Source: Actinomycetes bacterium
GTDB lineage: Bacteria; Actinomycetota; Acidimicrobiia; Acidimicrobiales; JABEUL01
DNA length: 64,000 bases
Assembly: GCA_021791915.1 (NCBI GenBank)
Contig: JAJYVQ010000002.1
Location: 434-64,433, forward strand
Direction of reading: 5' to 3'
In this document: one piece after another, positions 16,367 through 53,712 of the stretch
How positions within the stretch are numbered: position 1 is the stretch's first letter
Layout of the letters: each line of letters opens with the position of its first letter
The notes under the pieces: model-generated
Seen by the model: only the letters and a program-made list of their open reading frames with translations
What the model was told of the DNA's origin: nothing
Database searches by the model: none
Program-made: the position numbers and the translations under genes

Positions 16367-16405
16367 TTTATTTCCTTTTAATTGACTACTATATTTAGGT
16401 TGTTG

Positions 16406-16468
16406 GTTTAAGTCCTATGTTTAAATCCTATGTTTAAATCCTATGTTTAAATCCTATGTTTAAGTCCT
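16406..16468. repeat. intergenic tandem repeat, 13-bp unit x about 4.8 (gtttaaatcctat)
   Basis: Direct reading of the rplM-rpsI spacer. Confidence 0.9.
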
Positions 16469-16613
16469 TGAGATTAGAACTTCCCTCAATAAATTAACTA
16501 CCATTTACATGTTAGATAATACTGTTTTTGCATAAGTTGCTCAGCTCTATTTATTTAAATTAAAACTTATCTAAAATAACTTCTCTGCGATATGAATTTA
16601 GTATACATACTTT

Positions 16614-17048
16614 CTAGCTTTTTATTTCAAGTTGAATCGGTTTTTGCGCCTGATGTGTATGCTCACTACCGACATGCACATGCAGTTTATTTATCATCTG
16701 CTTGCCCAATTTCGTCTTTGGCAACATTCCACCTACCGTTTTTTTTACTAGCTTTTCAGGATCGTCTCTTAAGAGCTCTCCAAAACTTATCTTTTTTAGT
16801 CCCCCTGGATAACCGCTATGCCGATAAGCAAATTCCAAGTCGGCTTTGTTCGCCGTTAGCTTGACCGCTTCTGCGTTAACTATAACGACATGATCTCCAG
16901 TATCTGCGTTCGGCGTATAGATAGGTTTGTGTTTACCCATTAAAAGTTGGGCAACTTGTGATGCCAAACGCCCTAAGGGCACATCTTTGGCATCTATTAA
17001 ATACCACTCATGGGTTATTTCTTTTGCTTTAGGAGTGTATGTTACCAA
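16614..17048 (-). CDS. rplM: 50S ribosomal protein L13
   Basis: WYLIDAKDVPLGRLAS N-terminal signature. It is paired with rpsI. Confidence 0.95.
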   Translation of the reverse strand: MVTYTPKAKEITHEWYLIDAKDVPLGRLASQVAQLLMGKHKPIYTPNADTGDHVVIVNAEAVKLTANKADLEFAYRHSGYPGGLKKISFGELLRDDPEKLVKKTVGGMLPKTKLGKQMINKLHVHVGSEHTHQAQKPIQLEIKS

Positions 17049-17276
17049 TTTAACTACCTGCTTTTTTTATTAAAGATTAAACTAATTTACCGGTAAACTT
17101 TCAAAGGCAATATTTATAGCTAATATTCCTAAACAATTCCGCCGATAAATTTTATAAATTACAACTTTAAATTAACTTTACAATAACTATTTCTTTTATT
17201 TACTGTTTTTCTACAGCAATATCCAACAGCATTATCATCTGGTTTAGATTACAGCAAACCGTTAAACATTTACAGG

Positions 17277-18071
17277 TCAGAATAATTCTACCTTGTGATC
17301 CGTTTTAAACAGCTCCTCTTGATATTCTACATGAACCAGATGAAGTCCGTGGGGGGGAGCAATAAAAGTCAAATCAGTTCTGCTTTTACCCTTTAATATT
17401 CTATCAAGTTCTGATGCGGGGCGTTTACCGGTTCCAATTTCAAGTAATAATCCCACAATTGAACGCACCATTTGGTGACAGAAAGCGTTAGCATTGATCT
17501 CAAATACATCGTATGAAAGCGAGCTTTTTTTCATGGCCGCAAAGTTAACTCGTCGAACATTTGACTTTTGGAGTTTGGAGGATTTACAAAATGCGCTGAA
17601 ATCATTTTCGCCACTTAAATAGCTACAGGCTAAATTCATTTCGTCTAAATCTAATTTTTGTGGTACGGGATAGGCATATCTCAAGATCATCGGATGGTAG
17701 AACTCTTCTTGGATAATAAAATAGTTATATGTTCTGGACTTGGCAGAAAACCTGGCATGGAACGAGTCACTGACTTCAGTTGCCTCTAAGACTCCAATTG
17801 AGTCATCCAGCATCTTATTTAATGATTTTAACAGTCTTGACTTATCAAAAAACTTTTTCAACAAGCTCTCGTCAACGTCAAAATGAACTACCTGAAACTC
17901 CGCATGAACACCAGCATCGGTTCGGCCAGCACAAACAACATACACCTCTTGGTTAAATATTTTTGACAAACACGAGTTGATCTCGCCAGCAACGGTTTTT
18001 TGATTGACCTGGTTCGCAAAGCCATGATAGTCTGTTCCGTCATATGATAGAAGTAAGGCAATTCGCTTCAT
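17277..18071 (-). CDS. truA: tRNA pseudouridine(38-40) synthase
   Basis: GRTDAGVHA catalytic motif. Position is downstream of rplQ. Confidence 0.92.
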   Translation of the reverse strand: MKRIALLLSYDGTDYHGFANQVNQKTVAGEINSCLSKIFNQEVYVVCAGRTDAGVHAEFQVVHFDVDESLLKKFFDKSRLLKSLNKMLDDSIGVLEATEVSDSFHARFSAKSRTYNYFIIQEEFYHPMILRYAYPVPQKLDLDEMNLACSYLSGENDFSAFCKSSKLQKSNVRRVNFAAMKKSSLSYDVFEINANAFCHQMVRSIVGLLLEIGTGKRPASELDRILKGKSRTDLTFIAPPHGLHLVHVEYQEELFKTDHKVELF

Positions 18072-18295
18072 CTGTCACCTCGCTTAGTGACACTAAATTT
18101 TTAACACCCGATAATTTTTAATTTCGGTAAACTTTTATGTCGGATAAAATTGTAAATTCTCGCTCATTTTAAATGAGACTGTAATGATTTAATGACACTA
18201 TTCAATGACAGTGTAGTTATTAAATGAGACCTGTAGCCTTTAAGACCAAAGGTTTAATCTTAGTTGCTACAACTTTTAAAATTGCACAGCTAAAA

Positions 18296-18649
18296 TCAAA
18301 CAAACTCAATTTTGGCCATCGGAGCATTGTCACCTTGTCGCTGGCCTAGCTTTAGAATTCTGGTATAACCGCCGTTTCTATCAGCATAGCGGGGTCCAAG
18401 CTCCTCAAACAGCTTATGTGCCATGTCCTTATCTCTGATTAAAGCTACCACTTGTCGGTGCTGATGAACACCGCCGATTTTTGCCTTTGTAACAACCTTT
18501 TCTACGACGGGTCTTAAAGCTTTAGCCTTTGCTTCCGTAGTTACAATTCCTTCAGCCGCAATCAAGGAGGCCACTAAGTTACCCATCATTGCTTTTGAGT
18601 GTTCAGCATCCCCACCAAATCTTCTGCCTTTTTTAGGCGTACCTCTCAT
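18296..18649 (-). CDS. rplQ: 50S ribosomal protein L17
   Basis: The start is reassigned to the internal Met ([13 protein letters not shown]...). The longer ORF would overlap the rpoA 3' end. Confidence 0.93.
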
Positions 18650-18662
18650 AATAAACTTCCTT

Positions 18663-19607: not shown

Positions 19608-19646
19608 ATCTTTATATTCTCCTTAAACTTTATAAGTATTCAAAAT

Positions 19647-19674
19647 GTAAGTTTCTAATAGGTAAGTTTCTATA
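19647..19674. repeat. intergenic tandem repeat, 15-bp period x2 (gtaagtttcta core)
   Basis: Direct reading of the rpsD-rpoA spacer. Confidence 0.7.
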
Positions 19675-19775
19675 TTTAGCAATTAATACATAAGTATATA
19701 AATTCGGGGTGTTAATAACGGTTTTGCTTTTAAATAAAAAATTTCGATAACCTTGCATAAAAAACTTAACAAAAA

Positions 19776-21388: not shown

Positions 21389-21577
21389 TTAATTTAACCC
21401 TGCCATATTGTTACGTTCTGCCATATTGTTACGTTCTGCCATATTGTTGAGTTCTATTTTCCTGTTGAATACTGTCTTGCTATTAAGTTTCACTATACTA
21501 TTAAAGTTTTTTATTTTATCTGTAGTCACGTTAACTTCAGCAATCTTTTTATTGGTTGCAGCCATGAAAGTTATCAT
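21389..21577 (-). CDS. orphan 62-aa ORF in the rpmJ-rpsM spacer (uncertain whether it is a real gene)
   Basis: GGAGG lies 9 nt upstream of its ATG, and its TAA abuts the rpsM ATG. Against this, the protein is K/N-rich and low-complexity, and its C-terminus is built from an 18-bp repeat. Confidence 0.3.
   Translation of the reverse strand: MITFMAATNKKIAEVNVTTDKIKNFNSIVKLNSKTVFNRKIELNNMAERNNMAERNNMAGLN
21400..21453. repeat. tandem repeat, 18-bp unit x3 (ctgccatattgttacgtt)
   Basis: Direct reading, immediately upstream of the rpsM start. Confidence 0.9.
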
Positions 21578-21601: not shown

Positions 21602-21715
21602 CTAACCTTGTCTTTGCTTGTGGCGAGGATTATCGCAAATTACCATTACTTTTCCGTGCCTTTTTATTACCTTACACTTTTCACATATTGCTTTAACGCT
21701 TGGTCGAACTTTCAT
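21602..21715 (-). CDS. rpmJ: 50S ribosomal protein L36 (not in the ORF track)
   Basis: Hand translation gives [37 protein letters not shown] followed by a stop. Position is canonical, between infA and rpsM. Confidence 0.93.
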
Positions 21716-21722
21716 CTCATTC

Positions 21723-21765
21723 CTGTATTATTTATTACTGTATTATTTATTACTGTATTATTTCT
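21723..21765. repeat. intergenic tandem repeat, 15-bp unit x about 2.8 (ctgtattatttatta)
   Basis: Direct reading of the infA-rpmJ spacer. Confidence 0.85.
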
Positions 21766-24964: not shown

Positions 24965-25094
24965 TTGGCAGTTACACTATTTTCTTAAGGTTATTTATCT
25001 ATCTTCTTTAGGTTATTTATCTGTATCAGTTATCGAAACTTTGTTTCTTAAACAGAAGCTCGAATTTAATATATTCTATTTATTTCAAATATCC

Positions 25095-25164
25095 GTTAAT
25101 CCCAACGTTAAGTTAATCCCAACGTTAAGTTAATCTCAGCATTAAATTAATCTCAGCGTTAAAT
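25095..25164. repeat. intergenic tandem repeats, 17-bp units (gttaatcccaacgttaa x2, then taatctcagc-type x2)
   Basis: Direct reading of the 346-bp rplO-secY spacer. Confidence 0.85.
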
Positions 25165-26206: not shown

Positions 26207-26266
26207 AAGTTCATCTATTTTAAGTTCATCTATTTTAATTTCACCGATATTAAGTTCATCTATTTT
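26207..26266. repeat. intergenic repeat, 15-bp period x4 with the third unit diverged (aagttcatctatttt)
   Basis: Direct reading of the rpsE-rpmD spacer. Confidence 0.85.
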
Positions 26267-26320
26267 AATTTAAAAATTAAGTATTTGCAACTTGACTCTG
26301 CTTGATTGAAGCACCTACTC

Positions 26321-29971: not shown

Positions 29972-30050
29972 CTGTGTTCTTATCTGTTACTGTGTTCTTA
30001 TCTGTTACTGTATTCTTATCTGTTACTGTATTCTTATCTGTTACTGTGTT
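29972..30050. repeat. intergenic tandem repeat, 18-bp unit x about 4.4 (ctgtgttcttatctgtta)
   Basis: Direct reading of the 150-bp rpmC-rpsQ spacer, ending 9 nt upstream of the rpsQ ATG. Confidence 0.9.
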
Positions 30051-30113: not shown

Positions 30114-30716
30114 TTATTCTGCGACTTTATCTGAAGACTCCGAATCTTTTTCTTCATCTAAATCGCTATCTTCATCCGCTTTATTAGAATCTTCAGCATT
30201 AGCATTCACTTTATTACTGTCTTCAGCATTACTGTCTTCAGCATTACTGTCTTCAGCATCATCTTCTTCTAATACTTCTTGGTTTGATACTTGGTTTTTG
30301 GTATCCGCTTCAAAGTCTTCATCTTGATCATCCAAGTTATCTGATTCGGTATACAACTCGTCATACTCTTCAGATTCGTCCTCAACTAAAGTAGCTTTTT
30401 TAGCTTCCTCTTCCAACTCTTTTTCAACCATCCTAGCTTTTGTACCGAAAAGTCTGCCTTCTTTTGCTTTATACTTTGCAACAACTTCACCTTCGGACTT
30501 TTGTGTCGGTTTCAAATGGACAATATTTAATTCTTTTTCATGAATAATTGTTATAAGTCTGGCAATTTCACGCTTAAGTTTTTTAATAGATGATACGTCT
30601 CCAAGTTGATTTGTAGCAGCTCTAAACTTTAAAGCTGTCAGCTCCTTTCTGGCATCTTTTAGCCTTGAAACAAGCTCTTCATCATGATAAGTTGAAAGCT
30701 CCGAGGCCTTAGTCAT
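30114..30716 (-). CDS. rpmC: 50S ribosomal protein L29 with a ~135-aa acidic C-terminal extension
   Basis: The first ~65 aa match L29 ([27 protein letters not shown]...IARLITI). The remainder is D/E/S/N-rich with AEDSN repeats. Confidence 0.88.
30213..30257. repeat. in-frame tandem repeat, 15-bp unit x3
   Basis: It encodes AEDSN x3 in the L29 tail. Confidence 0.85.
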
Positions 30717-35641: not shown

Positions 35642-35650
35642 AGTTTATCC

Positions 35651-36657: not shown

Positions 36658-36663
36658 TTTATC

Positions 36664-38167: not shown

Positions 38168-38283
38168 CTGTTATTCTTATATTATTATTTTTAGGTTTTT
38201 ATATTTAGGTTTTTATTATGGTAGTTTTACTTTAATTAATTAAAAGTTCGCTATCATGTTAAAAAACGATCTAAGTAGGTCAA

Positions 38284-40371
38284 TCATTCGCCTTTAACTT
38301 TTGCCACAATCTCTTTTGAAACTGACTCTGGAACCTCCTGATATGAATCAAATTGCATTGTGTAACTTGCCCGACCCTGTGTTCTAGAACGCAAATCAGT
38401 GGCATATCTGAACATCTCACCTAACGGTACAAGCGCCTTTACAACCTGATTATTTACCCGCTGTTCCATCCCTTCTATTTTGCCCCTCCTAGAAGAGAGA
38501 TCGCCTATAACGTCGCCCATATATTCTTCGGGAGTAACGACTTCAACTGACATAATTGGTTCCAACAATACGGGTTTTGCCATCCGACAAGCTTTTTTAA
38601 TCGCCATGGAACCCGCTATCCTAAATGCCATCTCAGAGGAGTCCACATCGTGATATGAACCGTCTACTAACGTCGCTTTAACTCCAACTGTAGGGTAACC
38701 TGCCAATACACCACTCGTTAAGGCTTCTTTAATTCCAGCATCGACTGCTGGAATATATTCTCTAGGAATAACCCCGCCTGTGATTTCGTTAACGAACTGA
38801 TACTGTCCCGAAGGACCCGTGGGCTCGACATTTATTACAACGTGTCCGTACTGCCCTCTACCTCCCGACTGACGTATGTATTTTTCTTCAACCTCTTTAA
38901 CGGCAACGGTAATCGTTTCTCTGAATGCAACCTGAGGTTTCCCAACATGAGCATCAACGCTGAACTCTCTTAACATGCGATCTACTAGAACTTCCAAATG
39001 GAGCTCACCCATTCCAGCAATAACTGTCTGCCCAGTTTCTTCATCTGTACTTACTCTAAAGGTTGGGTCTTCTTCAGAAAGAGCAAACAAAGCTTTGCCA
39101 AGTTTATCCTGATCCGCTTTTGTTTTTGGTTCGATTGCTACATTAATAACAGGTTCGGGGAACTCCAAGGATTCCAACAGTATTGGATTAGCTGGATCAC
39201 AAAGAGTATCTCCAGTTTTAGTGTTTTTAAGCCCAACTACGGCAACAATATCTCCAGCAAATGCTGCGTCTCTATCTTCTCTGTGGTTCGCATGCATTTG
39301 CAAAATTCGCCCTACTCGTTCTTTTTGCGAAGACGTAGTATTCACAACGGCCGTGCCCTTATCCAACACACCAGAGTATACCCTTATATAAGTAAGTTTT
39401 CCAACGTATGGGTCTGTCATGATTTTAAAAGCTAAAGCCGAAAAAGGTTCTGAATCGTCTGGTTTTCTTTGAATCTTGTCTTCTTTATTTGGCAATGTAC
39501 CTTCAGTCGGAGGTATATCCAAAGGAGACGGCAAATAATCGATGACTGCGTCTAACATAGGTTGAACACCTTTATTCTTAAACGCAGATCCGCATAAAAC
39601 AGGAACTACCTCGTTTATTATTGTCGCATGCCTTAAGGCCTTTTTCAAATCAACTTCTGTAATCTCTTCTTCCGCTAAATATTTTTCAATAAGTTCATCG
39701 TCGTGATGTGTTAAAACTTCAAGCAGTTCGTGTCTAGCTTCGTCTGCTTTTTGCTTAAGATCATCAGGAATTTCGACTTTTGAATATTTGTCACCCATTC
39801 CTTCTTCCCAAATAATCGCTTTCATACCAAGCAAATCTACGACACCTTTAAAGTCCGATTCCACTCCAATCGGAAGCTGAATTACAGCGGGTACTGCTCC
39901 CAATCGATCCACAATCATTTCGACGGTTCTGCTAAAATTTGCCCCGATTCTATCCATCTTGTTTACAAAACAAATTCGTGGAACCCTATACTTATTACCC
40001 TGTCTCCAAACTGTTTCCGTCTGTGGCTCTACTCCAGCAACTGCGTCAAATACCGCTACAGCACCATCTAAGATCCTCAAAGATCTCTCCACCTCTACTG
40101 TAAAATCAACGTGCCCAGGAGTGTCAATTATATTGATTGTGGTATCGTTCCATTTACAAGTTGTCGCCGCCGAAGTAATGGTGATTCCTCGCTCCTGTTC
40201 TTGAACCATCCAGTCCATAGTTGCAGCACCTTCGTGAACTTCACCAATCTTATAATTCTTCCCAGTGTAATAAAGAATTCTTTCGGTAGTAGTAGTTTTT
40301 CCGGCATCTATATGTGCCATGATACCGATATTTCTTGTTTTTTCCAGTGGGTGTTCCCGCTTAGTGGGCAT
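38284..40371 (-). CDS. fusA: elongation factor G
   Basis: [20 protein letters not shown] and NKMD motifs. 695 aa. Confidence 0.98.
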
Positions 40372-40397
40372 TTAAAATCTCTTCTGCTTTAAAATTC

Positions 40398-40868
40398 TTA
40401 CCATCTATAGTGAGCAAAAGCTCTGTTTGATTCAGCCATCTTCTGAACATCTTCTTTTCTTTTAACAGCACCCCCGACACCGTTTGAAGCGTCCTGAATT
40501 TCGCCAGCAAGTCTTAGAGCCATGGTCTTTTCTTTGCGATTTTTAGCATATCCTACCAGCCATCTAACTGAAAGCGTGTTTGCTCGCCTTGGCTTAACTT
40601 CTACTGGAACCTGATACGTCGCCCCGCCAACCCTTCTACTTCTGACTTCCAATTCCGGGCGGGTTCGATCAAGTGCCTGCTTTAAAACAGTCAGAGGATC
40701 ATTACCAGTGCGTTCAGCAACCGTATCTAAAGCGTCATAAACAATTTTTTCTGCTAAAGTTTTTTTCCCTCTAGATAACACTTTGTTGATAACTTGTGCT
40801 ACAGTCACTGACTGATATACAGGATCGGGGCTAACAGTTTTTCTGGATGGGGCACCGTATCTCGGCAT
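40398..40868 (-). CDS. rpsG: 30S ribosomal protein S7
   Basis: [10 protein letters not shown]... N-terminus and C-terminal NRAFAHYRW. Confidence 0.96.
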
Positions 40869-41239
40869 TATGACTCCTTTTTTGCTCCGTAACGACTTCT
40901 GGCTTGCATTCTATTTTTCACACCAGAAGTATCCAAAGCGCCACGAATAATCTTATATCTGACACCTGGTAGATCCTTGACCCTTCCTCCTCTTACCAAC
41001 ACTATCGAGTGTTCCTGTAAGTTGTGACCTTCACCTGGAATGTAAGCAGTGACTTCAACGCCACTGGAAAGTCGAACTCTGGCGATTTTTCTGTTAGCCG
41101 AATTCGGTTTCTTGGGATTGTGAATCGAAATTCTCGTGCAGACACCACGTCTCTGGGGAGCACCTTTGAGAGCAGGCGTCTTTGTTTTTGTCTGTTTACT
41201 TTGTCGACCCTTACGGACCAGTTGTGCGATTGTTGGCAC
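40868..41239 (-). CDS. rpsL: 30S ribosomal protein S12
   Basis: [22 protein letters not shown] and [12 protein letters not shown]. Confidence 0.96.
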
Positions 41240-41469
41240 AAATACCTCTCTTTAAAATAATAAAAACCCAGCGGGAACATCCATATAAAAATACGGACAA
41301 GCAATTACCGGATATTAAATACTGGACTGTTGCGTTAGAAGTAACGCTAGTATCAAATTATATTTTACAACAAAATTTGATACTCAAATTCAATTAAGTT
41401 CAAAGAGCCAACACAAGAACAAATTTTCTCTGACCATTCCTAAATGGTTGTCCGTTATTTATGTGACCC

Positions 41470-44400
41470 TTAGAATTCATTTTCGGTTTCTTCAGATTCA
41501 GCTACTCTTCTTCCCAGATCTCTTAACCACACAGCCAGCTCTTCGGGGGTCTGACCCTGATCTGAAGACCAATAAGGAAGATGTTCGGCAACTGGAACTT
41601 TTGCTTTATACTTTCGATACTTTTCTACACCAGTTCCTGCCGGAATAAGTTTACCAATTATGATGTTTTCTTTAAGACCCATAAGCTGATCGGACTTGCC
41701 TTCTATGGCAGCTTCGGTCAGTACCCTCGTTGTCTCTTGGAAGGATGCCGCAGACAACCAAGAATCAGTAGCCAGCGAAGCTTTGGTAATGCCCATAAGT
41801 TCTGGTCTAGCTTCTGCTGGTTTGTTTTTCTTGTTGACCAACTCTCTGTTGGCTTCGGTAAACTTTCTGGTATCTACTCTTTCTCCTGGTAGAAAACTTG
41901 AATCGTTCGGTTCTACTATAGAAACCCTTCTCAACATCTGTCGCACGATCAGTTCTATATGTTTATCGTGAATAGACACACCCTGATCCCGATAAACATT
42001 TTGAACTTCGTCTACCAGATACTGCTGTGTCTCCCTAATTCCTCTGATTTCGAGTAGCTGCTTGGGATCCCTCGGTCCTTCTACAATTGCATCTCCAGCT
42101 TCAACTTCGTCTCCATCCTTATATTCCAAATAAGCTCTAGACGGAAGTATCATTTCTTCTTCACTACCGTCCTCGCCAATCAACGTTAACTCTTTAGAAC
42201 CGTTTTCAAGTTCGATTACTCTAAGAGTTCCCTTTTGTCTTGCCAAAACTGCAGCACCTTTGGGACTCCTGGCTTCAAAAAGTTCGATTACCCTAGGAAG
42301 ACCATGAGTTATGTCTTCGCCAACTACACCTCCAGTATGGAATGTTCTCATAGTCAGCTGGGTTCCTGGTTCTCCAATCGACTGTGCGGCGATTACCCCG
42401 ACTGCTTCACCAATTTCTATGAGCTTACCAGTTGCAAGTGAAAGTCCGTAACAACTTGCACAAACGCCGCTAATTGCCTCGCAGGTAAGTACTGACCGCA
42501 CTCTTATTCTATTAATGTTCGGGTCAGCAATAATCTTTTCGACAATCTCGTCTGTAAGTAAAGTTCCTGATTTTATCACCGTCGAATCAGAAAGCTTAAC
42601 TTGATCTAAAAGAATTCTGCCAAAAGATCTGGTTTCCTGATAGTTTCTTTTTGCAGGTTCATCGGGAACCATTTCATCTATCCATATACCTCTGGTGGTA
42701 CCGCAGTCTTCAATTCTGACTATAAGTTCTTGGGCGACATCTACTAGTTTCCTCGTCAGATATCCTGAGTCTGCAGTTCTTAGTGCTGTATCAGCTAAGC
42801 CTTTTCTTGCGCCGTGTGTAGAAATAAAGTACTCCAATACCGACAGTCCCTCTCGGAAAGATGACTTTATCGGACGCGGTATCATTTCACCACGAGGATT
42901 GGATACTAACCCTTTCATACCTGCGATCTGTCGTATCTGCTGAGGATTACCACGTGCTCCAGAATCTACCATCATATCAAGAGGATTAAACTCAATCGAA
43001 GCCAGAGATTTCTCCATAGCTCTTCCAACTTCAGAAGTTGCAGATGTCCAAATCTCTATCTCTTTCTGACGCCTTTCATCGTCAGTTACAATTCCTCTTT
43101 TGAACTGTGATTCAGCTTTTTCTGCCTCTTTTTCGTAACGATCGAGGATCTGCCTTTTATCTGACGGAGTCTTAACGTCCGAAATAGATATTGTAAGTCC
43201 ACTTTGCGCGGCATACCTGAAACCAAGCGTTTTAATCCGATCCAAACTAGCTGCTACTATTGCTTTGGGATAGTTTAAGGCAAGCTCTTCTACGATAACG
43301 CCTATTGGAACATGACGTTTGCCGATTATCTGATTCACAAACCTAAACCCTTCGGGTAAAGCTGAATTAAAAAGCAATCTCCCCGGTGTTGTTTCAACTG
43401 ATTCTCCCACCTCTACCGGATACAGATATGAACTGACATCAAATGATTTACCAAACGTCTCCTGGGATTCAACTGAAAGATCGTCTTCAGTCGCTTTCAT
43501 GCTCAAAGAATGTAATCTGATCTTTCCATTCTGTGGCTTCATAACTATCTTCGCCTGAAGATCTAAATCTCCATTCGCTAAAGCCATTTCTACTTCATAA
43601 AGATGCCTAAATACTTTGCCTTGACCCTTTGCATTTTCTTTTACTAACGTCAAATAGTAAATTCCAAAAACCATGTCTTGAGTTGGCACCGTAATAGGTC
43701 TTCCAGTTGCTGGCGACAATATATTGTTTGCCGATAACATTAATATTCTGGCTTCGGCCTGAGCTTCAGCAGAAAGTGGCAGGTGAACTGCCATCTGATC
43801 ACCGTCAAAGTCCGCATTAAAAGCCGTACATACCAGAGGATGAATCTGGATTGCCTTACCTTCAATCAATACAGGTTCAAAGGCCTGAATTCCAAGTCTG
43901 TGCAATGTAGGTGCCCTGTTTAAAAGAACTGGATGTTCTTTAATAACATCTTCTAATACGTCCCAAACCTGAGGCCTACGACGTTCTACCATCCTCTTTG
44001 CCGACTTAATATTTTGGGCAACTTTGGAGTCCACCAGTTGCCTCATAACAAATGGTTTAAACAGCTCAAGTGCCATCTGCTTAGGAAGACCACATTGATG
44101 AAGCTTTAAGGTAGGCCCGACCACAATTACGGATCTTCCTGAATAGTCAACTCTTTTTCCAAGCAAGTTCTGTCTGAATCTTCCTTGCTTTCCTTTCAGC
44201 ATATCGGATAAACTCTTTAGCGGTCTATTTCCAGGTCCAGCAACTGGTTTACCTCGCCTACCGTTATCAAACAGAGCATCTACAGCTTCCTGAAGCATTC
44301 GTTTTTCGTTATTGATAATAATTTCTGGTGCACCCAGTTCTAACAGTCTGGCCAATCGGTTGTTTCTGTTTATAACCCTTCTATAAAGATCATTTAAGTC

Positions 44401-45543
44401 AGATGTAGCAAATCTACCGCCTTCAAGTTGTACCATGGGTCTTAGATCCGGTGGTATTACTGGAACTGCGTCTAAAATCATCGATTTAGGATCGTTTACC
44501 CTATTACCATCTTCGTCACGCCTGTTAAACGCAGCAATAATCTTGAGACGCTTTATAGCTTTTTGACGGCGTTGTACCGAAAGTTGCTTTCTGCCGTCCA
44601 ATGCATCAATAGCTTCTCTAACTTTAAGTTCTTCTTCATCTAGATCCAAACGGTCCAAAAGCTTAAGTATTACTTCAGCTCCCATTCCACCTTCAAAAAA
44701 TTCAGAATATCTGATCCTTAGCTCCTGCCACAGAAGCTCATCGTCTATAATCTGTCTTGGATAAAGATCTCTAAAAGCAGCCAAGGCTCTTTTGGCGATA
44801 TCAATTTCCTCTTTGGCTCTGTCACGAACGTAACCGATTTCTTTTTCGATAGCCCTCTGCCTGCTTCTTATTTCAGAATCTTTAGCATTCCTTTTTTCAA
44901 GTTGAGCAACTTCAGTTTCAAGTTCTTTTAACCTTTTTTCTACCTCAACATCGCGTTCTTTTTCAAGTTCCATAATCTCTTCAGCCAACTCGGCTTCCAA
45001 ATTCGGAAGTTCCTCATGACGCCTTTTCTCGTCAACCCAAGTAACCAAATTAGCGGCAAAATAGATCACTTTTTCAAGTTGCTTGGCTTTCAATTCCTCT
45101 CTGGCTTCAGTTCCCATGAGCAGGTAAGCAAGCCAAGACCTAGTACCTCTTAGGTACCATATGTGAACAACAGGTGCAGCCAGCTCGATATGACCCATGC
45201 GGTCTCTTCTAACTTTGGATTTTGTGACCTCAACTCCGCACCTTTCGCAGATAATACCTTTGAAGCGAACTTTCTTGTATTTACCACAGTAACATTCCCA
45301 ATCCTTAGTGGGACCGAAAATCTTCTCACAAAATAAGCCGTCTTTTTCAGGTCTTAAAGTTCTGTAGTTAATGGTTTCGGGTTTTTTGACCTCACCGTAT
45401 GACCACGTCCTAATGGCATCACTAGTTGCTATCCCGATCTTAAGCTGATCGAAACTGTTTATTACCGCTTTTGCACTTTTAGGTTCAGGTCTTGAATAGT
45501 TAAATCCAAAACCAGAGATATCTTCGCTATTAAAATCTACCAT
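41470..45543 (-). CDS. rpoC: DNA-directed RNA polymerase subunit beta'
   Basis: [12 protein letters not shown] catalytic motif. 1357 aa. Confidence 0.98.
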
Positions 45544-45545
45544 AA

Positions 45546-48500
45546 CTAAAAACTCCCATCCATGGCAATGTACCCATCCATGTCGTCTGAGGATAGGTCG
45601 TGATGACTAAAATCAATCCCAAAGTGATCCATCTCCCTATCCACGTCGAAGTCAAGATCTTTAAGGTGAATTTCTTCTCCAGTGTTAGAAATGACTTCAA
45701 CGTCCAAACATAGCGACTGCATTTCTTTGATCAAAACTTTAAAACTTTCTGGTATACCCGGTTCGGGTATATTTTCACCCTTTACAATCTTCTCGTAGAC
45801 TCGCACCCTACCAGTCACATCGTCAGACTTAATAGTCAAAAGTTCTTGCAATGCAAAGGATGCTCCATAGGCTTCCAGAGCCCAGACTTCCATTTCACCG
45901 AATCTCTGACCTCCAAACTGTGCCTTTCCACCTAGCGGTTGCTGCGTAATCATTGAGTAAGGTCCTGTAGATCTGGCATGAATCTTGTCGTCTACTAAGT
46001 GCGCCAGTTTCAATATATATACATATCCAACGCTGATCGGATTATCATAAGGTTCTCCAGTTCGACCGTTATATAAAGTAACCTTTCCATCGTCGTTAAT
46101 AAGCTTCCTTCCATCTTTCCCGTCGGGGTTTAATTCGTTAAAAATATCCTTAATGGATTGATGGCCACCAGTTCTATCTTCCTCATCCCAATGAGCGCCG
46201 TCAAACGCTGGTGAAGAGACCCAGACTGCTGGAGGAGTTTTGGGTCTGGTCTTTTTAAGTGTTTTCGACTTAGGTATATGTCTGTTCGCCTCAGGCAACT
46301 TCTGCCAACCCCATCTTGCGGCATATCCTAGATGAGACTCCAACACCTGTCCAACGTTCATTCGACTTGGAACTCCCAAGGGATTCAAGATAATATCAAC
46401 GGGAGTACCGTCGGCCATGTAGGGCATCTCCTGAACTGGTAGAATCTTGGAAATTACTCCTTTGTTTCCGTGACGTCCTGCCAACTTATCACCCTCAGTT
46501 ATCTTACGTTTTTGGGCGACATATACACGAACTAGTTCGTTGACTCCGGGGGGAAGTTCGTGAGCATCATCTCTTGTGTAAACTTTAACATCAATTACAG
46601 TTCCAGACTCCCCGTGAGGAACTCTCATAGATGTATCTCTTACGTCTCTTGCTTTCTCACCAAAAATAGCCCTTAAAAGCCTCTCTTCGGGTGTAAGTTC
46701 AGTCTCACCTTTTGGAGTAACTTTACCGACCAAAATATCACCAGCGGAAACTTCGGCACCGATTCTAATAATTCCTCTTTCATCCAAATTTGCAAGTACT
46801 TCTTCGGAGAGGTTCGGTATGTCTCTAGTAATTTCTTCGGTACCCAACTTAGTATCTCTGGCATCAACTTCGTGTTCTTCGATATGAATGGAAGTCAACA
46901 CGTCATCAGTAACTAGCCTCTGCGACAATATAATCGCATCTTCATAGTTATACCCTTCCCAAGGCATAAATGCAACTAAAAGATTTTTTCCAAGAGCTAG
47001 TTCACCGTTTTCAACAGCTGGACCATCTGCGATCAGATCACCTTTGTTCACGTGTTGACCTTCGACGACTACAACTCGAGAGTTAACGCAGGTATTCTGA
47101 TTGGACCTTCTGAACTTATCAATCACAATCACTTCGTTGGAAGATAAAGGAACACCGTTTGAGTCTTTTTGCCCTGGATGATATTCGATATGTACAGAGT
47201 CCGCAGACACATAAGTAACAACACCTTTACCTTTAGCTTCGATCACGTCTCCAGCATCCAAAGCAGTTCTCAACTCCACTCCAGTACCAACGTAAGGAGC
47301 TTCGGGTATCAACAGAGGCACCGCCTGCTTCTGCATGTTTGCACCCATCAACGCACGGTTGGCATCATCATGTTCCACAAATGGAATAAGTGACGTCGAA
47401 ACCGAAACGATCTGTTTGGGACTAACGTCCATTAGATCGACTTCGTTGGCTGACACATAGTCTATTTCGCTGGTAGTTCCGTATGACGAACCAACTCCAG
47501 CTCCGAATTTCACTCCCGCACCCTGAGGGCCACGTCTCACCAATACTTTATCTTCGATGAAATTTCCTTTCGAATCAAACGGAGCGTTTGCCTGTGCGAT
47601 TACGTGCTCTTCTTCTTCGTCAGCAGCCAGCCACTGAATCTCATCAGTAACTTTTCCTTTAACAACCTTGCGATAAGGGGTTTCGATAAATCCGAAGTCA
47701 TTAACTCTTCCATACGTCGCAAGAGCCCCAATGAGACCGATGTTTGGACCTTCTGGAGTTTCAATCGGACACATCCTGCCATAATGGGAAGTGTGTACGT
47801 CTCTAACTTCAAATCCCGCACGCTCTCTTGACAATCCTCCGGGTCCCAAAGCCGAAAGTCTCCTTTTATGCGACAGACCCGAGAGTGGATTGTGCTGATC
47901 CATAAACTGGCTTAACTGGCTTGTTCCGAAAAACTCTTTTATAGCTGACACTACTGGTCTGGTATTTGTTAAGTTATTTGGAGTGATCAGCTCCTCATCT
48001 AAAGTTGTCATGCGTTCTCTTACCACTCTCTCCATTCGAGAAAGTCCAACTTTGACTTGGTTTTGAATCAATTCTCCTACCGCACGAATACGACGGTTGG
48101 CAAAATGGTCCTGGTCATCAACTCTATATCCGCTTTCACCTGAAGCTAAATGCAGAAGATAAGTTGCAGTTGCTAAAATTTCAGCAGCACTTAAAGTCGT
48201 GGAATCCACTTTGGGTTTTTCCAAATCAATTTTAAACAGTTTGCTTATTTTTTCTATTTCTGGGCCTAATTTGCGGTTTAACTTGTAGCGTCCAACATCG
48301 GAAAGATCGTACCTTTTAGGATTGAAGAATGAGTTTTCAAAGTAATTTTTTGATGCTTCATGAGAGAGAGGCTCACCAGGACGAACTCTTTTATAAACCT
48401 CCACCAATGCTTCTTCTTTTGTCTGTCCTGCAAACTTGTCTTTTGAATATTGAGGTCTTAGGAATTCAAAATGTTTTACAAATGCTTCAATAAAATGTGG

Positions 48501-49112
48501 GTCGTCAAAACCCAACGCTCTGATCAAAGTAAAAAGAGAAAGTCTTCTCTTTCGAGCTATTCTTGCACCTGCATTCAAATCCCGGGAAGGTTTATCTTCA
48601 AGATCAATTTCAACCCACTCACCTCTATAAGGATGAACTGTCCCAGTTAGAATAGTTTTTGCATCTTTCCCAAGCTGAAACAGTACCCCAGGAGATCTTA
48701 TAAGCTGACTTACGATAACTCTTTCGGTACCGTTAATAATAAAAGTTCCTTTATCTGTCATGATAGGGAAATCTCCCATAAACAGAGTATTTTCTTTTAT
48801 TTCACCAGTAGTTTTGTTGGTAAAAGAAGCTTTAACAAAAATTCTGGACGAATATGTCATATCCTTTTCTTTACACTCGTCCACCGTGTATTTCGGCGGC
48901 AGTATCTGATCTGGATCTTTTGGATCAAAGCTGAGATCTAATCTGAGATTCCCTGCAAAATCTTCTATCGGACTTATATCGTCAAAAGCTTCCTTTAATC
49001 CTTTTTCCAAGAACCATTTAAAGGAATTTTTTTGAATATCTAAAAGATTGGGCAGAGGCAGTACTTCCTCTAAATTTGCAAATGAAAAACGTTTCCTAGA
49101 CCCTGTGGTCAC
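45546..49112 (-). CDS. rpoB: DNA-directed RNA polymerase subunit beta
   Basis: 1188 aa with [13 protein letters not shown] and the conserved [14 protein letters not shown]. Confidence 0.98.
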
Positions 49113-49389
49113 AAGTTCCTCCGTGAAGATTGTGTGAGTGTGATGAATAATGTGATTTTGTGCGCGTTAATTCACTGGGACCGATAAGCTCGCTGGAATT
49201 TAAAAACACTTTAATAATATAATAGTACAATTACAGATAATAATTTCACAAAAAATACAAATTACTTACTTGCAGCTACATACGACTACGAATTAATTCG
49301 AAAAGTCAAAGAGCTACAAGAACCCGATTGCGGGATAATAATTTGGCTAACCAATTTGTTTTGTGTAATTTTGAATGCTTTTTTAGGTC

Positions 49390-49788
49390 TTACTTCAGCT
49401 CAACTGAAGCTCCAGCAGCTTCAAGCAACTCTTTTGCCTTTTCTGCATCTGCTTTCGAAGCCTTCTCGAGCACGGGTTTCGGAGCCGAATCGACCAAGTC
49501 CTTAGCCTCTTTTAATCCGAGATTCGTCAGCGCACGAACTTCTTTAATTACCTGAATCTTTTTATCTCCAGCTGAGGCCAAAATAACGTCAAATTCGTCT
49601 TTTTCATCCTCTTGAGCAACTTCGCTGCCACCAGATCCCACACCACCAACTGCTACTGCAGCGACGGGAGCTGCAGCCGTGACACCGAACTTCTCCTCAA
49701 ATTCTTTTAACAATTCGCTTAATCTCAAAACACTGAGATTGCCTATTGCTTCTAATATCTCCTCGTTGGTCAATTCTTTTGTTGCCAT
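49390..49788 (-). CDS. rplL: 50S ribosomal protein L7/L12
   Basis: Ala/Gly hinge followed by [23 protein letters not shown]. Confidence 0.96.
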
Positions 49789-49869
49789 ATTTTCTCCTTA
49801 TTTTTTATACTTTTTATTTTTTACTCGAATACTTGTTTGAAATAAATTTATATTTGCCTTTTTATACTC

Positions 49870-49909
49870 GCTTGTTTATATTTGCTTGTTTATATTTGAC
49901 TGTTTATTA
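49870..49909. repeat. intergenic tandem repeat, 14-bp unit x about 2.8 (gcttgtttatattt)
   Basis: Direct reading of the rplJ-rplL spacer. Confidence 0.75.
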
Positions 49910-49974
49910 CCTAGATTTATCTTGTAGGTTCATCTGCAAAATATAAACTAAATGCCCTATAGTTTCATTAAATT

Positions 49975-50532
49975 TTAAACTTCCTTAGATTTTTTATCTA
50001 CCAAAGCTTTCAAACCATATGCAAAATCTCTGGGGAGAGCTGACAAAACAGAAGCCATTTTAGACAGCGGAGCAGATAATCCTCCGGCAAGTTTTGCCAA
50101 CAGTACTTCTCTGGATTCTATACTGGCAAGCTGATTGGCCTCTGAAGTGCTAATGGAACGACCTTCCATTACACCACCTTTTATAATCAGCGCCTCGTTT
50201 GACTTTGAAAAATCCTTAAGTACCTTGGCAATAGAAACTATATCGTTTTCAGTAAATGCCAATCCGGTCGGTCCAGAGAAGAGTTCATCTAAACCTTCGA
50301 TAGATTTGACTTCAACTGCTCTTTTGACCAGAGTATTTTTATAAATTTTGTAATGTCCGCCCGCATTTAAAAGTTGCTGCCTCAAATCTTCTAATTCGCT
50401 TACCTTTAGCCCCCTATATTCGGTAAATATTACTCCGTTTGAGTTTTCGAATTTTGACACTAGCTCTTCAACTTGATTAACTTTTTGGTGGTTAATGCGT
50501 TTGTCTTCAGATTCTTTCATATACTTTTCCAA
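49975..50532 (-). CDS. rplJ: 50S ribosomal protein L10
   Basis: FTEYRGLKVSELEDLRQQL motif. It is paired with rplL. Confidence 0.94.
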   Translation of the reverse strand: MEKYMKESEDKRINHQKVNQVEELVSKFENSNGVIFTEYRGLKVSELEDLRQQLLNAGGHYKIYKNTLVKRAVEVKSIEGLDELFSGPTGLAFTENDIVSIAKVLKDFSKSNEALIIKGGVMEGRSISTSEANQLASIESREVLLAKLAGGLSAPLSKMASVLSALPRDFAYGLKALVDKKSKEV

Positions 50533-50586
50533 TTAAATTTAAGTTATTTAACAGACGATTTACTTTGGATAGATTTAACTAACGTC

Positions 50587-50628
50587 TACAAATTAACTAT
50601 CACAAATTAATTAACACAAATTAATTAC
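50587..50628. repeat. intergenic tandem repeat, 14-bp unit x3 (cacaaattaatta-type)
   Basis: Direct reading, 55 nt upstream of the rplJ start. Confidence 0.8.
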
Positions 50629-50639
50629 CAAAGAACCCC

Positions 50640-50720
50640 ACGGAAACAATCAGTTGACTGTGTTTGAACCCCTACTTAGGAATTAATTTAAGCTAACAGC
50701 TCCTAAGGTCTTCGGTTAAG
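50640..50720 (-). promoter_or_regulatory. candidate L10 (rplJ) leader-like structured 5' UTR
   Basis: The minus strand reads CCGAAGACCTTAGGAGCTGTTAGC...TTCCTAAGTAGGGG. It can form a 7-bp CTTAGGA/TCCTAAG stem enclosing a small GCT-GTT-AGC hairpin. Its position matches known rplJ leaders. No covariance test was possible. Confidence 0.3.
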
Positions 50721-50997
50721 ATTATAGTTTAGCACATCCAATAACACTCTTTTTTTTAATTTTTTCACGGTACCACTAATAAATTTTCAGTTGACTTTTC
50801 AGGCAACTTATTTTCAGACAAGATATTTATATTCCACTTTGTTACATCGTCCTTGTTACATCGTCTGACTTTAGCACTTGTAGCTTAAATAGTGACCAGT
50901 CGTTCATAAAACAACTATGCTAAAATTGGACCCACAGACCAAATATTTCTTGTCTACGCCAAAATCTCTTAGTTAGACAACTCTACAATTAAGTTGG

Positions 50998-51723
50998 TCA
51001 GGCAGTTAAATCCAAGTCTTCGTCGGTCAATTTTAACCTGTTCGTATCAACTTTAATACCTGGCCCCATAGACGAACATAACGTAACCGCCCTAAAATAT
51101 CTACCTTTTGCAGATGCAGGCTTTACTCTTGAAATTTCATCGATAACTGCCCGAAAATTTTCCATAATTGCCGAGGTATCAAACGACACTTTTCCTAAAA
51201 TCACGTGTACGTTACCAACTCTGTCAGTCCTATATTCGACTCGTCCTGACTTAAATTCCTTAACTGCCTTTCCGACATCGTTAGTTACTGTACCAGTTTT
51301 GGGATTCGGCATCAAACCCTTAGGACCTAATATTTTACCTAACTTTCCTACCTGAACCATTAGATCTGGAGTAGCGACAGCAATATCAAAATCTGTGAAA
51401 TTTTCATTCTGTACCTTAGCAACCAAATCATCAGCACCCACATAATCTGCACCTGAAGCTCTGGCTTCATCTGCAGCTTCTGCGGCAGCGAATACTGCAA
51501 CTTTGGCTACCTTGCCAGAACCAGACGGCAATACTATAGTTCCACGTAACATTTGATCGGACTTTCTCGGATCTACCCCCAATCGCATCGCAATTTCGAT
51601 TGATTCATCAAACTTAGCGGTAGCAAGTTCTTTAACTAACTTAATCGCTTCGACCGGACTATAAAGTGATTCTTTTTCGAACTTGCCTTCCATAGCTTTT
51701 AATCTCTTGGTTTTAACTGTCAT
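50998..51723 (-). CDS. rplA: 50S ribosomal protein L1
   Basis: [15 protein letters not shown] and [15 protein letters not shown] motifs. Confidence 0.96.
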
Positions 51724-51728
51724 ATTAC

Positions 51729-52160
51729 TTAGGCTCCCGCTACCTTTATTCCCATTGACCTTGCAGTACCTTCCACCTGTTTACAAGCTGCTTGAATATC
51801 TCTTGCGTTCAAGTCAGGCATTTTAAGTTTGGCTATCTCTTCAATTTGCTCGGAGGTAACCGATCCCACCGTTGATCTACCTGTTGTAGATGCTCCTTTC
51901 TCGATCCCCGCAAACTGTCGCAACAAGGCTGGAGTTGGAGGGGTCTTTAAAACGAAGGTGAAACTGCGATCATCAAAAATCGATATGTCAACTGGTATTA
52001 TTGTTCCCTTTTGAGATTCAGTTGCTTCATTATACTGTTTACAGAACTCCATCGTCTGTATTCCGTGAGGTCCCAATGCAGTACCTACAGGAGGGGCAGG
52101 AGTAGCCTGTCCCGCTGGCAACTGAATTTTTACTACTGCTATTAACTTCTTTTTTGCCAT
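51729..52160 (-). CDS. rplK: 50S ribosomal protein L11
   Basis: [24 protein letters not shown] motif. Confidence 0.96.
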
Positions 52161-52250
52161 AAACTGTTTCCTTTAAAATTACTCTTTACCTAAAATATCC
52201 TGTTACAAACTATCCTGCGACAATTTAAAATTAAGCTAAATTATCCAAGC

Positions 52251-52296
52251 CAAATTATTATCTAAGTCAAATTATTATCTAAGTCAAATTATTCAT
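52251..52296. repeat. intergenic tandem repeat, 17-bp unit x about 2.7 (caaattattatctaagt)
   Basis: Direct reading of the nusG-rplK spacer. Confidence 0.85.
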
Positions 52297-52361
52297 TGCC
52301 TATTTAGTATTAACTAAATTTGGAAAATCGCAATTCTAAGATAACATCTTCGATATAACTA

Positions 52362-52402
52362 ACTTTTTTCTTTGACTTTTTTCTTTGACTTTTTTCTTTG
52401 AC
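52362..52402. repeat. intergenic tandem repeat, 13-bp unit x3 (acttttttctttg)
   Basis: Direct reading of the nusG-rplK spacer. Its core is related to the repeat at 53613-53651. Confidence 0.9.
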
Positions 52403-52441
52403 AGATCTACCGAAATCCTAAACTCAAATCCCTTATTAAGT

Positions 52442-53272
52442 TTACAGCTTTACAACCTGAGAAAATTCAAGCTCAACTGGTGTCTCTCTTCCAAAAATAT
52501 TCACCAGTACCTGTAACTTCAGCTGATCTTCGTTAATTTCAGCAATTTGCCCAGAAAAGTCCGCAAACGGCCCTTCTTTTACTCTTACCGTTTGTCCAAT
52601 TTCATAAATTAATTTTGCTTTAGAACGTAGCTTAGAATCCTGATCTTCTCGGACTTTCAATATGGTCTCGACCTCATTTTTTGAAAGTCTACTCGGAGTA
52701 TTACCAGCACCGACGAATCCTGTAACCCCTGGAGTTCGTCTTATTACTTCGAAAGCTTCTGAGTCATCGTCGCTTCTAACAAGAATATACCCTGGAAATA
52801 CTTTTCTGCTTACAGTATACTTTTTCCCTGATTTAACTTCCACTGCGTCTTCCATGGGAATCACAATTTCATAAATTTTGTCCGCCATTTGCAGAGATTC
52901 TCGTCGTGTTTCTAAATTCGACTTTACTTTTTTTTCATAACCTGCATAAGTATGCACAACATACCAGTTTCCAGGTCTATCATACGGGCTCTGTTGGTAG
53001 TTTGTTTTATTTTCCTCCAACTCTGATTCTTCAAATTCCAATTCATTGTCGGCAGCATCTAAAACGGCGTCTACAGCAGTATCGATTACGTTAGAAAATA
53101 AATCTGGATTTTCATCGGTAGTAATTTCAGAATGATCCACTTGACTAATTCCCGTCTGACCAACATACTCATCTTCGACTATCTCTTCATTTTCTTCTTG
53201 AACTAACTCACTATCTTCAACCATGCCGAAGATCTGAGTCTGTTCACCTAAGTTCGCATCTGAATCCATCAT
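52442..53272 (-). CDS. nusG: transcription termination/antitermination factor NusG with an acidic N-terminal extension
   Basis: NGN domain (WYVVHTYAGYEKKV) and KOW motif (GQTVRVKEGPFADFSGQIAEIN). The start is reassigned to the ATGATG at 53272/53269, just after a GAGGT that overlaps the secE stop. Confidence 0.92.
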   Translation of the reverse strand: MMDSDANLGEQTQIFGMVEDSELVQEENEEIVEDEYVGQTGISQVDHSEITTDENPDLFSNVIDTAVDAVLDAADNELEFEESELEENKTNYQQSPYDRPGNWYVVHTYAGYEKKVKSNLETRRESLQMADKIYEIVIPMEDAVEVKSGKKYTVSRKVFPGYILVRSDDDSEAFEVIRRTPGVTGFVGAGNTPSRLSKNEVETILKVREDQDSKLRSKAKLIYEIGQTVRVKEGPFADFSGQIAEINEDQLKLQVLVNIFGRETPVELEFSQVVKL

Positions 53273-53276
53273 TACC

Positions 53277-53594
53277 TCAACTATTAAACAACATTTGGAC
53301 AACTTTAATAAATCCGTAATCGAGCCCAAATATTAGTGCACCAATTATCACAACTGACATCAACACAATAGTGCTGTAACTGGTAACTTCTGGACGATTT
53401 GGCCAAACAACTTTTTTCAATTCAGCCCTAACTTCATCTTTGAATTGAACCAATCTTGAAATTATTGAACCTGTACTCTTAACTTCAGGTTTTGGCTTTC
53501 CTGTCTTGGGCACACGCGGTTGGGGTGCGATCATCTCACCGGATTTATCAATCGTCCCCTGCTTTTGCATTATTCGTCTCTGTTCACGATTCAC
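53277..53594 (-). CDS. secE: preprotein translocase subunit SecE
   Basis: FKDEVRAELKKVVWP followed by a single C-terminal TM segment. Canonical position between tRNA-Trp and nusG, with a GTG start. Confidence 0.88.
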   Translation of the reverse strand: MNREQRRIMQKQGTIDKSGEMIAPQPRVPKTGKPKPEVKSTGSIISRLVQFKDEVRAELKKVVWPNRPEVTSYSTIVLMSVVIIGALIFGLDYGFIKVVQMLFNS

Positions 53595-53612
53595 TAATGT
53601 TACCTCTTACTG

Positions 53613-53651
53613 CTTTTCTTTGATACTTTTCTTTGATACTTTTCTTTAATC
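53613..53651. repeat. intergenic tandem repeat, 13-bp unit x3 (cttttctttgata)
   Basis: Direct reading, 19 nt upstream of the secE start. Confidence 0.9.
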
Positions 53652-53712
53652 GTTCTCTGTTTTCGCTCATACTTAGCCAATATTAATATCAATTAAAACG
53701 TAGGTCAAATTG

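Follow-up and report, generated by a model that had tools for sequence, protein, structure and literature searches.

Dense minisatellites with units of 13–18 bp in the ribosomal-protein, rpoBC and nusG operon region of an AT-rich Acidimicrobiales lineage

The DNA described here is a stretch of 64,000 nucleotides (the window) from an uncultured actinobacterium of the order Acidimicrobiales, lineage JABEUL01 (assembly GCA_021791915.1, contig JAJYVQ010000002.1, positions 434 to 64,433 of the forward strand). The elements under study are the short head-to-tail repeat arrays, or minisatellites, that lie between and within its conserved genes. The GC content of the window is 40%. The minus strand holds every gene from position 220 to ~53,600, in the NCBIfam-supported order secE-nusG-rplKAJL-rpoBC-rpsLG-fusA-tuf-S10/spc/alpha clusters-truA-rplM-rpsI-glmM. 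The closest genomes by SecY are metagenome-assembled Acidimicrobiales or Actinomycetes. DAHYGJ010000001.1 (GCA_027390095.1) is of the same species as the window (99.9% identity). The sister species L001 and L002 are 87–88% identical in SecY and ~73% identical in nucleotide sequence, with a GC fraction of 0.42–0.43; the next relatives are L003 (GC 0.42) and L063 (GC 0.47). Most retrieved relatives have a GC content of 57–71%, the window belonging to an unusually AT-rich branch within a high-GC class.

Several spacers of the gene block are enlarged. The lengths are 346 bp for rplO-secY, 190 bp for rpmD-rplO, 139 bp for rpsE-rpmD, 150 bp for rpmC-rpsQ, 213 bp for rpmJ-rpsM, 432 bp for fusA-tuf and 692 bp for rpsJ-rplC, exactly as given in a preliminary description of this DNA. 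The same description regarded nearly every spacer of the block as enlarged, which is too broad: only about 13 of the 34 junctions from tuf to rpsI are longer than 100 bp. Genes of the translationally coupled cores, rplC to rpmC in the S10 cluster and rpsQ to rpsE in the spc cluster, stay −4 to 31 bp apart, as in all relatives. It further placed a repeat in almost every such gap; about two-thirds of the enlarged gaps do hold a convincing array, and about one-third do not (rpmD-rplO, rplQ-truA, map-infA, rpsM-rpsK, rpoC-rpsL and rplL-rpoB). The rplA-rplJ and rplL-rpoB gaps are long across many bacteria. In rplA-rplJ (477 bp) a sub-threshold match to the Rfam family L10_leader is present at 50610–50733 on the minus strand (32.2 bits, gathering score 44, E = 0.13); the match sits at the expected place, exactly between the two genes. 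A divergent L10 leader is probable here and would account for some of the spacer length. In the rpsJ-rplC spacer (35642–36333) ~120 of the 692 bp are tandem repeat, and the remainder has no detectable repeat, ORF (open reading frame) family or Rfam match. This junction, normally tight, is also gapped in L063 (257 bp) and L031 (318 bp).

Arrays of the spacers, all on the minus strand and detected with Tandem Repeats Finder (TRF) except where another source is given, are as follows from the low-numbered end of the window. The rplM-rpsI spacer (247 bp) contains a 13 bp × 4.8 array at 16406–16468, with alleles of −13 and −26 bp in other contigs of the species. In the rpsD-rpoA spacer (168 bp) a weak, imperfect 15 bp × 2 repeat is found by direct reading at 19647–19675 (TRF score <30). 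Between rpmJ (21602–21715) and rpsM an 18 bp × 2.7 array at 21400–21448 ends 11 bp upstream of the rpsM start; its units resemble the rpsM start region (ATGGCA), and five of seven contigs carry an allele of −18 bp. The infA-rpmJ spacer has a 15 bp × 3.0 array at 21719–21763, 3 bp upstream of the rpmJ start and non-polymorphic in seven contigs. Two arrays, 22 bp × 2.1 and 17 bp × 4.0, lie in rplO-secY at 24977–25162 (allele −17 bp). The rpsE-rpmD spacer contains a 15 bp × 4.1 array with 82% matches (26207–26268), and rpmC-rpsQ an 18 bp × 4.4 array composed of two variant blocks (29972–30050; allele −18 bp). Three arrays (15 bp × 2.3, 17 bp × 3.3 and 13 bp × 2.1) occupy 35650–35987 in rpsJ-rplC. 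The largest array of all is the perfect 15 bp × 6.8 repeat of the fusA-tuf spacer (38066–38167; alleles −15 and −60 bp). At the high-numbered end are a 14 bp × 4.4 array in rplJ-rplL (186 bp; 49847–49907; monomorphic in seven contigs), a 14 bp × 2.9 array in rplA-rplJ that adjoins the L10-leader match (50588–50627), two arrays of 17 bp × 3.2 and 13 bp × 3.2 in nusG-rplK (281 bp; 52240–52402; monomorphic in seven contigs) and a 13 bp × 2.7 array 18 bp upstream of secE (53613–53647). A perfect 18 bp × 2.0 duplication at 54212–54247 includes the last 6 nt of tRNA-Thr (54242–54315, minus strand) and leaves a pseudo 3′ end downstream of the tRNA.

A 62-codon ORF (21389–21577, minus strand) fills the rpmJ-rpsM spacer and stops at TAAATG, at the rpsM start. 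Its C-terminus is formed by the 18-bp array, translated as (NNMAER)n. It has no family match, is annotated with 52–58 aa by the gene callers in other contigs and is absent from L002.

Convincing arrays within genes all have 15-bp units in frame, as established by TRF and translation, and all lie on the minus strand. These are (QNNIS)n at the N-terminus of a uracil-DNA glycosylase family protein (UDG; 15 bp × 5.1, 6605–6680; 232 versus 222 aa, allele −30 bp), (TNREP)n inside holo-ACP synthase (ACPS; 15 bp × 3.1, 12216–12262; alleles −15 and +15 bp), two adjacent arrays (× 3.1 and × 3.7) that form an insertion of ~40 aa in GlmM (15365–15478; alleles −30, −15 and +15 bp), (AEDSN)n in the long acidic C-terminal tail of L29 (15 bp × 3.1, 30213–30259; 195 versus 200 aa), (ELDDA)n at the C-terminus of L22 (15 bp × 2.3, 32074–32107) and (LGTHK)2 in the N-terminal extension of L4 (15 bp × 2.0, 34953–34982). 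Across contigs the resulting protein lengths are 200 or 195 aa for L29, 490, 485 or 480 aa for GlmM, 173 or 168 aa for ACPS and 232 or 222 aa for UDG. The encoded pentapeptides are hydrophilic and are positioned at termini, in tails or in linkers. Long, low-complexity acidic tails are carried by L29 (200 aa, 30114–30716; L29 domain at residues 6–61), L22 (259 aa, 32061–32840) and S3 (305 aa, 31143–32060). Part of the L29 tail is common to L001 and L002 and absent from L003.

Arrays are far denser between genes (2.75 per kb) than in coding DNA (0.25 per kb). Of 14 TRF arrays that overlap coding sequence, eight have 15-bp units, among them all seven convincing ones; the remaining coding hits are either weak or run across the end of a gene, except for a separate 105-bp repeat in a pilus ATPase gene. 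Among intergenic arrays the period is a multiple of 3 in 38%, close to the one-third expected without constraint. This combination of density and frame is the pattern expected if duplications of 13–18 bp arise everywhere and selection culls those that are out of frame or harmful. The exceptional repeat (63696–63897, 105 bp × 2, sub-periods 42, 24 and 18) encodes part of the N-terminal region of a PilB/MshE-type ATPase. It is G-rich and differs in kind from the AT-rich arrays; the gene product has 600 versus 566 aa, and one allele is ~102 bp shorter.

Enrichment over a composition-matched null is strong, both in the whole window and in the spacers taken separately. At a TRF score of >=50 the window contains 27 non-overlapping arrays, compared with 0.38 ± 0.6 in 50 block-wise dinucleotide shuffles; at a score of >=40 the spacers contain 21, compared with 1.29 ± 1.1 in 200 shuffles of the same spacers. 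Overall density is ~0.4 arrays per kb. According to TRF and exact-run scans the units are 13–18 (22) bp long, arranged head-to-tail in 2–6.8 copies. When all periods from 5 to 60 are scanned with equal weight, perfect repeats of >=2 copies are found at periods of 13 bp (four), 14 bp (one), 15 bp (ten), 17 bp (two) and 18 bp (four). None is found at periods 11, 12, 16 or 19–60, and the other perfect repeats are four short ones of 2–3 copies with units of 5–10 bp. Intergenic arrays have periods of 13 bp (four), 14 bp (five), 15 bp (six), 17 bp (three), 18 bp (two) and 22 bp (one). Shuffled spacers, too, give low-score TRF hits by chance, most often at 12–15 bp, and weight is therefore placed on the strong arrays only.

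The preliminary description named 15 bp as the modal unit. The 15-bp repeats that it cited at 21723 (× 3.0), 26207 (× 4.1), 35651 (× 2.3) and 38066 (× 6.8) are all confirmed as arrays; the one at 19647 is merely an imperfect two-copy 15-mer. As a mode, 15 bp is weak among intergenic arrays and is carried largely by the coding arrays, in which only multiples of 3 survive. It is thus in part a reading-frame filter, since the convincing coding arrays are all of 15 bp, the multiple of three central to the band. The preferred length is the band of 13–18 bp, not 15 bp as such.

Units of different loci are unrelated, and the spacers have no family of dispersed repeats in common, whether direct or inverted, in agreement with the earlier view that no mobile family is involved. 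Sharing of 7-mers between units is twice that between random spacer segments (P = 0.006) and sharing of 8-mers is not above this null; the doubled 7-mer sharing is read as common composition, not as family membership. Arrays also occur in the non-ribosomal flanking parts of the window, and the 18 kb of contig sequence outside the window has five more arrays of 13–16 bp, all in spacers. The tendency had been called genome-wide. Its extension beyond the ribosomal block is borne out, over a survey that covers ~82 kb of one contig and the sister-species loci.

Variation in copy number between strains had been set as a test beforehand and is found. Exact-protein look-ups yielded 26 conspecific contigs that overlap the window, from NCBI, ENA, JGI and Logan assemblies of different samples, and further conspecific contigs beyond these 26 were also retrieved. 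They are 99.6–100% identical to the window. Almost every internal indel consists of whole units at an array (13, 15, 17, 18, 26, 30 or 60 bp). Of 26 arrays, 11 have more than one allele, and units are gained as well as lost. As many as four arrays distinguish contigs that share two single-nucleotide polymorphisms (SNPs) relative to the window (16956G and 17538T), and further alleles are found in a second SNP clade, ~0.35% divergent. Contigs separated by 0–4 SNPs per 11–16 kb differ at 3–4 of ~9 arrays; the closest pairs show 3–4 array events together with 3–4 SNPs per 11–16 kb. These counts imply that the rate per array is ~10^2 to 10^3 times the substitution rate per site, a rough estimate of a ratio and not an absolute rate. 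Arrays of the nusG-rplKAJL region are monomorphic in seven contigs.

Assemblies of the species break systematically at the fusA-tuf array: of eight others, seven stop 61–208 bp downstream of fusA (38066–38283; L196–L202), five of these inside the 102-bp array, which also fits heterogeneity. An exact-pattern scan of metagenome contigs for the flank of this array gave 0 matches, and an S9 protein scan of metagenome contigs gave relatives of <=67% identity only and no conspecifics.

Among relatives, this pattern is confined to one genus-level clade. The sister species have enlarged spacers at many of the same junctions, with their own arrays of 12–21 bp. Neither these spacers nor their units can be aligned with those of the window, though the flanking proteins are 75–99% identical; by this comparison the spacer DNA evolves too fast for sequence constraint. 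Enlargement can be species-specific: infA-rpsM measures 488 bp in the window and 153 bp in L002. L003 and L063 have tight spacers without such short-unit arrays. L063 has no array at all, and the single array of L003 is a coding repeat of the L22 tail (93 bp × 3.5, L003:3464–3787). AT-richness alone is therefore not sufficient for the pattern, because L003 is equally AT-rich. A graded series of relatives of intermediate GC content (L006–L009 and L077, 49–57% GC) also has a few enlarged spacers, e.g. rpsE-rpmD and rplO-secY. At adk-map the sister species carry an insert of ~2 kb (L002:11952–14024, L001:9995–12039), compared with 33 bp in the window.

The arrays are probably minisatellites of the ordinary type, that is, variable-number tandem repeats (VNTRs), at unusual density, produced by a mutational process specific to a genus-level, low-GC lineage of Acidimicrobiales. 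The first reading proposed that the genome tends to form and keep minisatellites of a preferred length; this is supported, with the length refined to the 13–18 bp band. In the proposed mechanism segments of 13–18 bp would be tandemly duplicated anywhere in the genome. Whole units would then be gained or lost by replication slippage or unequal exchange, far faster than point substitution. Selection would remove gene-breaking events, leaving arrays mainly in spacers; those within genes would survive only in frame (15 bp) and only where a terminus, tail or linker tolerates them. Where tight translational coupling is not required, spacers have grown in the lineage and turn over quickly. Within individual arrays the central copies are identical and the edge copies decayed, with variant blocks side by side, an architecture that fits stepwise slippage, so that replication slippage is the likely mechanism of expansion and contraction. 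Neutrality of the arrays is likewise suggested. A neutral, mutation-driven origin is favoured because the spacers show no excess of promoter- or terminator-like sites (35600–55000), no Rfam family and no conservation, because the units are unrelated and because the same arrays occur inside enzymes and beside tRNAs.

Several points weigh against this interpretation or limit its reach. Generic slippage explains neither the sharp lower bound at 13 bp nor the array-free state of an equally AT-rich relative, and a lineage-specific cause must exist. Arrays make up 13% of intergenic bases, and once they are masked the spacers retain a residual periodicity of only z ~2 at lags 13, 14 and 18; the notion that the spacers are decayed arrays is thus not demonstrated, and spacer growth is linked to the arrays only circumstantially. 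Intergenic density is ~2.6 times higher in the ribosomal/rpo block (19 arrays in 5.2 kb) than in other spacers (8 in 5.7 kb), a modest difference, and the portion of the genome covered is only ~82 kb. Seven of 22 intergenic arrays end 3–25 bp upstream of the next start codon, compared with 3.3 expected (P = 0.027), a mild non-randomness for which selection or function could be responsible. The assemblies compared for allele calls are all metagenomic and apparently short-read builds, with contig names of the k141_ and NODE_ types. The fusA-tuf alleles of −1 and −4 units may partly be assembly collapse and are less certain than the others; the shorter arrays are not open to this objection.

A functional role as tuning elements, in which changes of copy number in 5′ leaders and intercistronic spacers of ribosomal and translation-factor genes would set their translation initiation, mRNA stability or spacing in the manner of a contingency locus, is unlikely. 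It would account for the clustering before start codons, the higher density in the ribosomal block and the A-rich sense strand of the units, which resembles translation-enhancing leaders. The units are, however, unrelated to one another, and neither array position nor unit sequence is kept in the sister species at 87% SecY identity. Arrays of the same kind lie inside GlmM, ACPS, UDG and L29 and beside tRNAs, and those of the rplKAJL region are monomorphic. A scan of 35600–55000 gives 45 sigma-70-like promoters (40.8 in shuffles) and 12 intrinsic-terminator-like hairpins (14.3 in shuffles), hence no excess of either, and Rfam searches at the gathering score and at E <= 1 return only tRNAs and the sub-threshold L10 leader, so that no RNA family explains the spacers. 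Two observations leave a small door open for selection, namely the start-codon clustering and the rpsM-start-like 18-bp units within the 62-codon ORF. This ORF, which stops exactly at the rpsM start, is also a point in favour of a dispersed mobile family, or one like mycobacterial interspersed repetitive units (MIRUs), repetitive extragenic palindromes (REPs) or miniature inverted-repeat transposable elements (MITEs), inserted into operon spacers; the location of the arrays between co-transcribed genes is likewise that of the MIRUs of mycobacteria, which are also Actinobacteria (PMC3184786). Such an origin is scarcely credible, with units of 13–18 bp instead of 40–100 bp, 8-mer sharing at the level of random spacers, no dispersed direct or inverted repeats that join the spacers, periods of 13, 14 and 17 bp with which an ORF cannot be maintained, and no counterpart of the 62-codon ORF in L002, whose entire infA-rpsM distance is only 153 bp. 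An origin of the repeats, or of their differences in copy number, as artefacts of assembly is very improbable, even though all but one of eight other assemblies stop no more than ~210 bp downstream of fusA, five of them inside the fusA-tuf array, and the comparison contigs apparently come from short-read metagenome assemblers. The same arrays recur in NCBI, ENA, JGI and Logan assemblies of different samples; most are 35–80 bp long, well under the read length and k = 141; alleles recur across several contigs and in assemblies from different pipelines, with a second SNP clade that has its own; and analogous arrays exist in the sister species.

A further proposal, a mechanistic sub-case of mutation-driven VNTR formation and not an alternative to it, is that an enzymatic peculiarity of the lineage sets the unit length. 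Altered processing of Okazaki flaps or primers (Pol I 5′-nuclease/FEN, RNase H), a change in the replisome or helicase, or a lack of loop repair would allow flaps or loops of ~13–18 nt to be fixed as tandem duplications. Yeast rad27 (FEN1) and Escherichia coli polA 5′-nuclease mutants accumulate short duplications flanked by direct repeats. This proposal is tentative. The narrow length band with its sharp lower edge points to it, as does the presence of the trait in the clade of the window and its absence from the equally AT-rich L003. In Actinobacteria NucS replaces MutS/MutL and does not repair indels in vivo (PMC7015689). NucS is, however, not the specific cause, because array-poor Actinobacteria share it. 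A simple duplex-stability threshold for the length band is rejected, since the 13-mers have 15–23% GC and the 18-mers 33–44% GC, the longer units being more GC-rich and not more AT-rich. It is conceivable, with considerable doubt, that the arrays record a discrete mutational signature, tandem duplications of ~13–18 bp that stem from a specific change in replication or in lagging-strand processing, e.g. flap or primer removal, and that are actively remodelling operon spacers and adding pentapeptide repeats to the essential proteins L29, L22, L4, GlmM, ACPS and UDG. If this is true, the lineage would be a natural ‘duplication mutator’, traceable by comparison of array-rich and array-poor genomes of sister clades.

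Among known systems the arrays are closest to the bacterial VNTRs used in multiple-locus VNTR analysis (MLVA) of Yersinia pestis, Burkholderia pseudomallei, Xanthomonas and Mycobacterium leprae. Common features are head-to-tail, locus-specific units that are mostly intergenic or in frame, changes in whole-unit steps much faster than point substitution, and polymorphism between near-identical strains; all these defining features are present here. Differences are the very high density (~0.4 per kb overall, ~2.8 per kb intergenic), the narrow band of 13–18 bp, the position inside the S10, spc, alpha, str and rplKAJL clusters and in housekeeping proteins, and the host, an uncultured environmental member of the Acidimicrobiales and not a pathogen. 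MIRUs have units of 40–100 bp and form one related, dispersed family at ~40–50 loci, with ORFs that overlap the flanking stop and start codons (Supply et al. 1997, as summarised in PMC3184786). They share with the present arrays an actinobacterial host, a position between genes of polycistronic operons and a variable copy number, whereas here the units are of 13–18 bp, are unrelated between loci and are mostly unable to carry an ORF, only the array at 21400 lying in one that ends at the rpsM start. Contingency simple sequence repeats (units of 1–9 bp; Haemophilus, Neisseria, Mycoplasma) also change in copy number at a high rate, driven by slippage; here the units are of 13 bp or more, those of the convincing coding arrays keep the reading frame and so give no frameshift switching, and the genes are housekeeping, not surface or virulence genes. 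The cyanobacterial short tandemly repeated repetitive (STRR) heptamers resemble the arrays as short intergenic tandem repeats that are abundant genome-wide in one lineage, but they comprise a few conserved families of 7 bp, whereas here each locus has its own unit of 13–18 bp. The lack of an inverted-repeat or dispersed direct-repeat family between spacers distinguishes the arrays from REPs and MITEs.

No published account of such a pattern was found in literature on minisatellites generally or on tandem repeats in Acidimicrobiia, and no paper turned up under the sample or assembly accessions, within a limited coverage of the literature. What is unusual here is the density, the narrow band of unit lengths and the fact that, in an environmental actinobacterium, the arrays sit in essential proteins and in the operons that are most conserved. 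No new functional element or system is revealed. The arrays suggest that even bacterial gene clusters of the highest conservation and tightest packing can gain fast-mutating minisatellites when the mutational regime of a lineage changes. They offer a clean natural example of selection that filters a uniform mutational input, with only in-frame units at tolerant positions surviving in genes. They are ready-made, high-resolution strain markers for an uncultured Acidimicrobiales population and explain breaks of metagenome assemblies at particular spacers; their main use is as such markers and as a natural case of length-biased duplication. Comparison of array-rich with array-poor AT-rich sister clades would be a practicable way to find which gene or genes control short tandem duplication in Actinobacteria.

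The window also contains an element of the IS607 type (9765–11932) between yjeF and acpS, with a serine-recombinase (Resolvase) gene and a TnpB (OrfB_IS605 / Cas12f-like) gene. As a source of staggered-cut duplications it was considered and dropped, the units being unrelated and a guide-directed nuclease being expected to hit one type of target. The GC fraction of the element is ~0.50, compared with ~0.39 in its surroundings, and it is found in all conspecific contigs that span the site.

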